In this document: piece after piece, positions 13,496-15,469 of the stretch
Numbering within the stretch: the stretch's first letter is position 1
Layout: every line of letters begins with the position of its first letter
NCBI GenBank assembly: GCA_951406725.2
Contig: OX597815.1
Coordinates: 77,004,001 to 77,068,000 of the forward strand
DNA from: Octopus vulgaris
Lineage: Eukaryota
DNA: 64,000 nt
Direction: 5' to 3'
Made by a program: the position numbers and the translations under genes
Notes under the pieces: model-generated
Database searches by the model: none
Told to the model about the DNA's origin: nothing
Seen by the model: the letters and a program-made list of their open reading frames with translations, nothing else

Positions 13496-14679
13496 TGACT
13501 GATTGATTGATTGAGTGATTGATAGTATTGTTATATAATACACATAGATATATGTTGTATTTTAAGCGCACACACGTAATATATTACATATGCATAACAT
13601 ATATATATGCCCGTATGTGTGTATCTATACTAATATATATTATGCATTATATTTCACATACATGTACATACAAACGTGTGTATATAGGTATGTATTTTAT
13701 ATATATATATATGTATATTTTATGCGCGTGTATAGGTTTATATATGTGTGTGTTCATATTTGTGTATAGATAAATATATGTGTATATATGTATGTGTGTG
13801 TTGTGTGATTGTGTACGTGAGTGCATGTGCATTTATGTGTACTTATTTACTTTAATAATTTTATTGCACTCTTGCTTTCTGTGTTATTTCCAAACTATTG
13901 TGTAATAGCACATACTGAGAATACAAGCGTATACATACATGCAGACACATATATACCCACTTATATGTATGAATGTATTTGTGTGAGAGAAAGGCAATGT
14001 GTGTATGTGCGTATATACATGCATTGTTATATGTATATATTCATATGGGTGTATATATGTCTACATGTGTGTTTCAATGCATTGGCATATATTTTTCTTA
14101 TGTCGCTATGTATTGGGCTAGCAAAAGCGCGAAGAAGCAATAAAACCTCATGGTACAAGGTGCTATTTTGCTGCGTGCAAATTAAGGCAATCAAAGAGAA
14201 GGACTTTATGTGCAATGCCACTTACTATAAAAATTTTCTATATTAGGAGAGTAGAGTTGGGTAGAGCTGGTTGGAAGAAGCAGTTTGATTCAGTAAAAGC
14301 AAATAAACCTGAATAATATATAAGATCAATACAACAGAGGGAATTCAAGAAAAGCCATTTAGGAACATGAAGTATCTGTGATATAATGTTGCTGTTGATA
14401 ATTATATATATATATATATATATATATATATATATATATATATATATATATATATATACATATATATATATATATATATATATATATATATATATATATA
14501 TATATATATATAGCGGGATCAGCCATCTGAATGTAGCTAGGGACAGGGCGGGGTGGTGGGGATGTTACTGATGCATTTAGCCCCAGGCGACTATAGACGT
14601 CACTAGAAGAGCCGACACCATCACGGTGTCCTTGCTGGCCTGCAAAGGGAGATCAGCCTTCCCGAAGATACGGATGCTA

Positions 14680-14722
14680 CACACGGACCGGTTTCGAGGT
14701 AATCGCCTCTCGTCAGCGCATG
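14680..14722 (-). ncRNA. Intact minimal type I hammerhead ribozyme (left arm)
   Basis: Minus strand: CATGCG-CTGACGA-GAGG-CGATTA-CCTC-GAAA-CCGG-TC^CGTGTG. Confidence 0.88.
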
Positions 14723-14830
14723 GCAAGCACCGTTCTTCGTTGAGGGACTTCCTGTACAGGCCAGTTATATATAGATTTTCACAGTAACCACAGGCACTGG
14801 CGTCGAAAATCTGTTCGAAACGGTGCTTGC

Positions 14831-14873
14831 CATGCGCTGACGAGAGGCGATTACCTCGAAACCGGTCCGTGTG
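14831..14873 (+). ncRNA. Intact minimal type I hammerhead ribozyme (right arm)
   Basis: CATGCG/CGTGTG stem I, CUGACGA core, GAGG/CCTC stem II, GAAA, palindromic ACCGGT stem III; predicted GUC cleavage after 14867. Confidence 0.9.
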
Positions 14874-15469
14874 TAGCATCCGTATCTTCGGGGTGGCTGA
14901 TCTCCCTTTGCAGGCCAGCAAGGACACCGTGATGGTGTCGGCTCTTCTAGTGACGTCTATAGTCGCCTGGGGCTAAATGCATCAGTAACACCCCCACCAC
15001 CCCGCCCTGTCCCTAGCTACATTCAGATGGCTGATCCCGCTTATATTAAAGAGCAGTTACTGTTTATACCTCGCTCAGAGATTTATTATTATTATATATA
15101 TATATATATATATATATATATATATATACATATATATATATATATATACATATATACATATACATATATATATATATATATATATATATATATATATATA
15201 TATATATATATATATATATATATAAAATAATAGTAATAATATTATTTGCCACAGAGTAAAGAAAGGACATTACAAGGAGATGTTATAAAAATAATTGTTT
15301 TACGATAATTTGATAATGGAAAAAATAACGGGTCAGGGAAAATACAAAAGGTATGAAATGACACGTTCCAATAGAGTGACACAAGCCTTAGACCAATCAA
15401 AGCATTATACAGATCCAGAATTTAACAAGTATCATTTTCCGGGAATGTTTTCCAGCTGGATGTTGTCGT

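Follow-up and report, generated by a model that had tools for sequence, protein, structure and literature searches.

A head-to-head retrozyme insertion in the Octopus vulgaris genome carries a PLE insertion signature

Within a 64,000-nucleotide stretch of the Octopus vulgaris genome (GCA_951406725.2, contig OX597815.1, positions 77,004,001 to 77,068,000 of the forward strand; the window), a GC-rich palindrome interrupts a (TA)n microsatellite. Alignment of its inverted arms (14512-14734 and 14819-15041; 223 nt each, with 84 nt between) bore out the initial annotation, which had described 223-bp arms with about three mismatches and an 84-bp gap: the arms are 99% complementary, with exactly three mismatches, and their GC content of 58%, against 34% for the window, agrees with the GC-richness noted there. 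The predicted fold of the palindrome has a z score of -55 relative to shuffled sequences and, as a fold prediction, the suggestion that a read-through transcript would form a hairpin of ~220 bp also holds.

The palindrome is the portion common to two pieces of a 360-bp monomer, unequal in length and partly overlapping, one on the minus and one on the plus strand; together they make up an element of ~590 bp (about 14506/14512-15095; Table 1). The earlier placement of 14512..15041 between (TA)n tracts is too narrow on the right, where ~50 more element bases (15042-~15095) separate the arm from the tract; on the left, the outermost ~6 bases of the left arm merge with the TA tract. Likewise, the 84 bp that had been read as a separate spacer prove to be the upstream part of the monomer on the minus strand, a stretch found directly upstream of the arm sequence in tandem copies elsewhere. 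In the window insertion this spacer is confined to the left arm and the tail to the right arm, each being absent from the other, and with TA tracts on both sides a target duplication is not readable.

Table 1. Coordinates of the element and its flanks within the window.
Feature	Position	Strand	Remarks
Left (TA)n tract, target microsatellite	14403..14511 (or 14512)	.	masks any target-site duplication
Left arm, 313 nt	14506..14818	-	monomer 228->360->1->179; outer 3' terminus at site A
Type I hammerhead core, left arm	14686..14716	-	exact pattern match; fold of 14664-14739
84-bp 'spacer', monomer 228-311	14735..14818	-	exclusive to left arm
Head-to-head junction, 5' ends joined	14818..14819	.	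found at this locus only
Right arm, 277 nt	14819..15095	+	monomer 312->360->1->228; outer 3' terminus at site B
Type I hammerhead core, right arm	14837..14867	+	stem III of 6 nt, self-complementary; cleavage predicted 3' of 14867
Site A (monomer ~175-181)	15042..15048	+	traversed by right arm; end point of the other arm
PLE-type 'tail', ~45 nt between sites A and B	15049..15095	+	ends at site B
Right (TA)n tract	15093..15224	.	tract scan

No coding similarity was found in the element, and a 131-aa frame running across the palindrome has no Pfam match, in agreement with the earlier statement that no RT or EN coding sequence is recognisable there. No host exon was recognised among the 11 long window frames scanned. 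Elsewhere in the window, at 45985-50090 on the minus strand, a broken non-LTR retrotransposon of ~4.1 kb (RVT_1, E 5e-22) lies between (TAA)n tracts and may resemble microsatellite-targeting R4/Dong elements; its RT, at 47102-48097, is unrelated to the Penelope-like element (PLE) protein described below. Within the element, a TATA-like box (14765-14774, minus strand), also present in a sister family described below, lies ~30-40 nt upstream of hammerhead stem I and may be regarded as a candidate internal promoter.

The initial annotation had placed an intact minimal type I hammerhead on each strand. The core motif is present in both arms, with a predicted cut in the left arm between 14686 and 14685, but the profile score falls short: Rfam Hammerhead_1 aligns at 14831-14873 with the expected helices at 11.6 bits (E 4.4), against a gathering threshold of 34, and a scan of 1.6 kb at E<=1 reported low-complexity matches only and no Hammerhead_1. 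On sequence criteria, then, the hammerhead is intact at the level of the motif only. Across nine hammerheads from three families, 86% of helix cells are paired and there is one two-sided pair change, support for the helices that is only modest because the nine sequences are kin. Cofolding predicted a stem II kissing structure and not a dimeric hammerhead, so that the case for activity as a dimer rests on the literature, which describes PLE hammerheads as weak cleavers that depend on dimer formation and have a small helix III that is palindromic (PMC4209133).

When the arm and the spacer were used as separate queries against the animal's own genome assembly (2.8 Gb, 227 contigs), a check proposed in the initial annotation, further copies were found, but not in the same arm-spacer-arm layout. 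The two queries returned overlapping sets of loci, with matches 360 bp apart. The 360-bp monomer, consisting of arm, tail and spacer, was read from a locus with ~7 units and is numbered here from the predicted ribozyme cut site; tandem arrays of ~7 units with this period occur at C2:144.93 Mb and C1:20.0 Mb. Such arrays are scattered, with termini at sites A and B, and one of them (L022) has a target duplication. The ribozyme core pattern has 86 exact matches genome-wide, a lower bound on copy number, and its reversed control none. Arms extend to 2024 bp, monomer upon monomer, without an ORF, and in none of 98 arms was the repeat seen to continue into coding sequence. The monomer has a GC content of 49.7%, where the retrozyme criterion of PMC7229834 is given as <50% in its text and as <45% in a figure legend. 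Low divergence between arms, with a median of 1.35% within a site and 4.2% between sites (31 sites), indicates a young family; the arms of locus L125 differ at 0 of 331 positions. This low divergence, the lack of an ORF and the PLE-type ends support the earlier view of the element as young, non-autonomous and akin to PLEs and retrozymes, with a minimal type I hammerhead. The contigs of four public runs also contain family sequence, in which A>G differences are not separable from paralogues.

The layout of the window palindrome is, on the other hand, not shared: among 40 scored candidates, all 70 bases across its junction match only their own place, and 38 of 38 junctions in our first set of sites differ. 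The copies thus have neither the fixed terminal inverted repeats nor the common internal layout of a foldback element or MITE, contrary to the earlier proposal of a separate mobile family with a fixed arm-spacer-arm structure. What moves is the 360-bp, tandem, protein-free monomer, that is, a non-LTR retrozyme, and the foldback is rebuilt at every insertion.

We then catalogued the ends of the insertions. The first set of 97 loci, from which one short neighbouring match in L116, of a sister family, had been dropped, gave 60 sites, 38 of them head-to-head with 3' ends outward and 22 single-armed. Outer ends cluster at two places in the monomer, A (177-184) and B (220-230). Of the two-armed sites, 35 combine A with B, none is A/A or B/B and three are unclassifiable. 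A second set of 21 sites, taken from the junction and ribozyme-core searches after this rule had been noted, added 15 two-armed sites (13 A+B, 0 A/A or B/B, 2 unclassifiable) and six single-armed ones. Over all 81 sites, 53 are head-to-head and 28 single-armed, and every classifiable head-to-head site (48/48; binomial p 7e-15) is A+B, the other 5/53 having eroded or borderline ends. These sites are the best-scoring matches and not a random sample, and one of the first three queries covers the tail and is biased toward B/B, which is nevertheless absent. Insertion favours AT-rich DNA: (TA)5 lies within 20 nt of 84 of 98 family 3' ends, and where a site is not pure TA there are target duplications of 11-14 bp (4/38 sites by script; L180, L205, L207 and L216 by eye).

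The two arms of one site are alike in sequence, agreeing at 302 of 314 diagnostic columns, where shuffling leaves 46% discordant (minimum 26%). Their lengths (median 320 nt for A and 307 nt for B) are weakly correlated (rho 0.33, p 0.02). The ribozyme cut site is crossed by 72 of 95 arms, and 47 of 98 are longer than one monomer. Inner ends show no enrichment at the cut site (3/96, p 0.5); eight of 96 lie at site B (p 0.047), a post hoc figure that carries no weight. In long insertions the units differ mainly by single changes, and a variant common to at least two units was seen in 5/7.

The ribozyme itself varies. G8A occurs in 28 of the 86 exact cores (counted by eye), and 21 of 81 sites carry the G8A core alone, 11 of these being A+B. 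This subfamily (for example L049, L073, L117 and L211) has linked diagnostic changes, is dispersed and shows the normal layout. G8 is essential for hammerhead cleavage, and a G8A change would be expected to block it. In the hammerhead of an anole PLE, G8C abolishes cleavage (PMC11167929). Since the G8A subfamily inserted in the same way as the rest, self-cleavage is probably dispensable for spread, although an intact core in a dimer could possibly still cleave a G8A partner in trans. The ribozyme would probably serve to cut monomers from tandem transcripts without being needed for insertion.

A sister family, with a 355-bp monomer, is 62% identical to the first over 453 nt, with a nearly identical tail, and its hammerhead has an 8-nt self-complementary stem III. 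Among its 30 loci (L141-L170), counted by eye, 14 are two-armed; 12 of these are classifiable, the other two being eroded, and all 12 are A+B (11 independent, with one duplicate pair). Examples are G000:C7:35030666, C1:200777486 and L116:2276-2500, and duplications of 11-16 nt occur at non-TA sites. At L116:2240-2500 (G000:C1:92888040), head-to-head insertions of both families lie within one (TA)n tract. The sister family is older and far commoner, contig depth over the shared tail being a few hundred times that over the family-1 hammerhead. A third, more diverged retrozyme-like relative with a degenerate hammerhead (L077:2030-2510, minus strand; L018:2050-2830) has ~71% identity to family 1 over the tail region.

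The same genome holds an abundant PLE with RT and GIY-YIG domains (L128-L134, for example G000:C16:20836744-20839089), whose 781-aa frame is intact in many copies. It is young and has two ORFs, the upstream one of up to 479 aa, a ~1-kb pLTR with tandem CCAAT-box-like repeats, and a 36-nt tail; a core pattern search found no hammerhead in it. This PLE, too, has two end sites and lies in (TA)n, and its only sampled head-to-head locus, L134, is A+B. A second PLE family (L084, L135, L137, L140) has a minimal hammerhead of its own in its pLTR, the core of which is intact at two loci (L084, L140) and carries U4C at the other two (L135, L137). The retrozyme itself has no ORF for RT and GIY-YIG and is not an autonomous PLE, and no autonomous PLE with the retrozyme monomer or tail was found in a small, one-sided sample of 43 PLE loci (30 GIY-YIG loci and 13 longer stretches). 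Together with the ORF-free, tandem nature of the copies, this speaks against the reading, raised as a fallback in the initial annotation, that the element is simply an inverted pLTR belonging to an autonomous PLE. The likeness between the retrozyme tail and that of the 781-aa PLE is not significant (356/1000 shuffles). A 13-nt match to the retrozyme in L091 and L099 lies inside a simple repeat and was dismissed as chance; L135, where a sister-family copy lies 1.4 kb behind the PLE, was rejected as a partner because the copy is absent from L137 and is thus a separate insertion.

Taken together, we think it likely that these are head-to-head retrozyme insertions made by a PLE RT/endonuclease that primes cDNA from both cut target strands. 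The enzyme's cut, in AT-rich DNA, would leave a 3' stagger of 11-14 nt; one target 3' end would prime at the AU-rich site A, and its partner ~45 nt further downstream, at site B. The two cDNAs would be extended 5'-ward on an uncleaved multimeric (or circular) RNA, halting at variable points, and would then be joined to give a variable head-to-head junction. Where an 11-14-bp duplication accompanies outward element 3' ends at either side, we infer that both target 3' ends primed reverse transcription and that the cDNAs were joined. The palindrome is then a by-product: the stretches of monomer sequence copied by the two cDNAs overlap. Since 72/95 arms cross the cut site and 47/98 exceed one monomer, a linear monomer released by cleavage was not the template. 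That both arms belong to the same subfamily fits a single template RNA or source locus, and also fits successive subfamily waves or gene conversion. Against two-ended priming stand the 28/81 single-armed sites and the correlation of arm lengths, which is unexpected under independent synthesis. With the anole PLE in vitro, the start site did not differ between strands and was not homologous to the cut DNA (PMC11167929), whereas the retrozyme ends here look complementary to their AT-rich targets.

An unlikely alternative is single priming, in which cDNA started at B primes itself and is copied back to A, where it is joined to the target, with later deletions at the unstable centre making the arms unequal. 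Self-priming has been proposed for inverted PLE junctions (PMC3846280), with the tail attributed by Craig et al. to endonuclease-mediated resolution (PMC8557442), and it accounts jointly for A+B pairing and same-subfamily arms. Consistent with such a snap-back, the A arm lies inside the B arm at 18/48 sites, and the palindrome centre is near perfect at 5/48. However, at 30/48 sites the A arm is not nested in B, median arm lengths are alike, and in the window the A arm has 84 bases missing from the B arm. Self-priming thus requires secondary deletion at most sites, even very young ones such as L125. Later central deletions could possibly explain unequal arms, but with neither arm able to be a copy of the other at 23/48 sites and so few near-perfect centres, two syntheses are favoured.

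The copies might instead be inverted pLTR stumps of an autonomous PLE yet to be found, with the arrays as local by-products. They are laid out as PLE insertions are, the search covered only 43 PLE loci, and retrozymes have been described as pLTR-derived, with local amplification as a possibility (bioRxiv 10.64898/2026.07.22.740005); ORF-free arms of up to 2024 bp, none of 98 seen to reach coding sequence, and dispersed arrays with A and B termini, one of them with a target duplication, make this very improbable. Still less probable is a MITE-like foldback family that moves as arm-spacer-arm, with a hairpin RNA bearing two hammerheads as its mobile or functional unit. The window palindrome is near perfect, with both hammerhead motifs intact, and whole hammerheads lie on both arms at 19/38 two-armed sites of the first set, but a junction found once, 38 differing junctions, unequal ends (A and B), a spacer that is monomer sequence and the occurrence of direct tandem arrays leave such a family next to no room. 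It is scarcely credible that the palindrome is a chimeric assembly artefact: none of the contigs from the four public runs reaches across the window junction, an absence that proves nothing because these are contigs only, covering ~76% of the largest run and probably from another individual, whereas 53 sites have the same layout, with strict A+B ends and target duplications, and the window arms differ at three positions and in length.

The window locus is therefore a retrozyme whose insertion shows the PLE signature, of a known kind and in itself ordinary. The footprints of its family bear on which machinery moves animal retrozymes, for which the available text of a recent preprint describes the mechanism as unresolved (bioRxiv 10.64898/2026.07.22.740005), and provide useful evidence for mobilisation by PLEs. 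They also bear on how PLEs build inverted copies with a one-sided tail, a point left open in the accessible parts of Craig 2021 (PMC8557442) and Frangieh 2024 (PMC11167929). A bolder and tentative proposal, which we hold to be somewhat more likely wrong than right, is that PLE integration is obligately two-ended and asymmetric, with an enzyme dimer, one uncleaved RNA and strand-assigned A and B sites, and that animal retrozymes spread by borrowing this step, needing neither ribozyme activity of their own nor circles. If so, copies this short, numerous and young would preserve PLE chemistry more cleanly than any other genomic trace, and the ~45-nt tail would act as a portable cis-signal. The A+B rule, the non-nested and same-subfamily arms and the mobile G8A subfamily yield specific predictions for an in vitro PLE assay.

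As described in published work, metazoan non-LTR retrozymes are tandem monomers of ~170-400 nt (350-390 bp in mussel), each with a type I hammerhead, that have no ORF, produce target duplications of >4 bp and are expressed as self-cleaving RNA in linear and circular monomer form (Cervera and de la Pena 2020, PMC7229834). PLEs are considered strong candidates for their mobilisation on the grounds of co-occurrence, common ribozymes and pLTR homology, with ribozyme-made circles favoured as templates (PMC7229834; Li et al. 2026, bioRxiv 10.64898/2026.07.22.740005). The octopus family matches this description in its 360-bp tandem monomer, type I hammerhead, lack of an ORF and 11-14-bp duplications; it departs from the published accounts, in their accessible parts, in its head-to-head insertions with a one-sided tail and in the spread of a G8A subfamily. 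In the main texts of the open-access literature we found neither a PLE layout in retrozyme insertions nor A+B counts.

PLE insertions, in turn, are reported to include inverted 5'-truncated copies, often with the tail at one end only, and to be biased toward microsatellites (PMC8557442; PMC3846280), and the anole PLE protein, a predicted dimer, acts on both strands, cutting and extending each; synthesis begins at two internal sites, one at either limit of the tail, and insertion takes place without cleavage by the ribozyme (Frangieh et al. 2024, PMC11167929). The retrozyme resembles EN+ PLEs (Arkhipova et al. 2013; Craig et al. 2021; Frangieh et al. 2024) in its inverted 5'-truncated copy, head-to-head junction, one-sided tail, (TA)n bias and two start sites with the hammerhead upstream. 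Target duplications are ~9-14 bp in EN+ PLEs as reported and 11-14 bp here. It differs from these elements in lacking an RT or GIY-YIG ORF and in its tail of ~45 nt, where theirs are given as 30-40, and a tail that the PLE papers, as far as their accessible text goes, call one-sided 'often' or 'optionally' is one-sided at 48/48 sites here.

Two further systems produce comparable structures. In L1 twin priming, two target 3' ends prime on the element RNA, so that the 5' part comes out inverted and is joined at a junction, the second primer using variable internal sites and the pieces having no overlap; in the retrozyme, by contrast, the start sites are fixed and, the template being tandem, the two pieces overlap to form a palindrome. 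Foldback elements and MITEs have long inverted arms, a TA-rich target and no ORF, whereas the retrozyme, without fixed termini or a fixed internal layout, has unequal ends and, as its unit, a tandem ribozyme monomer.
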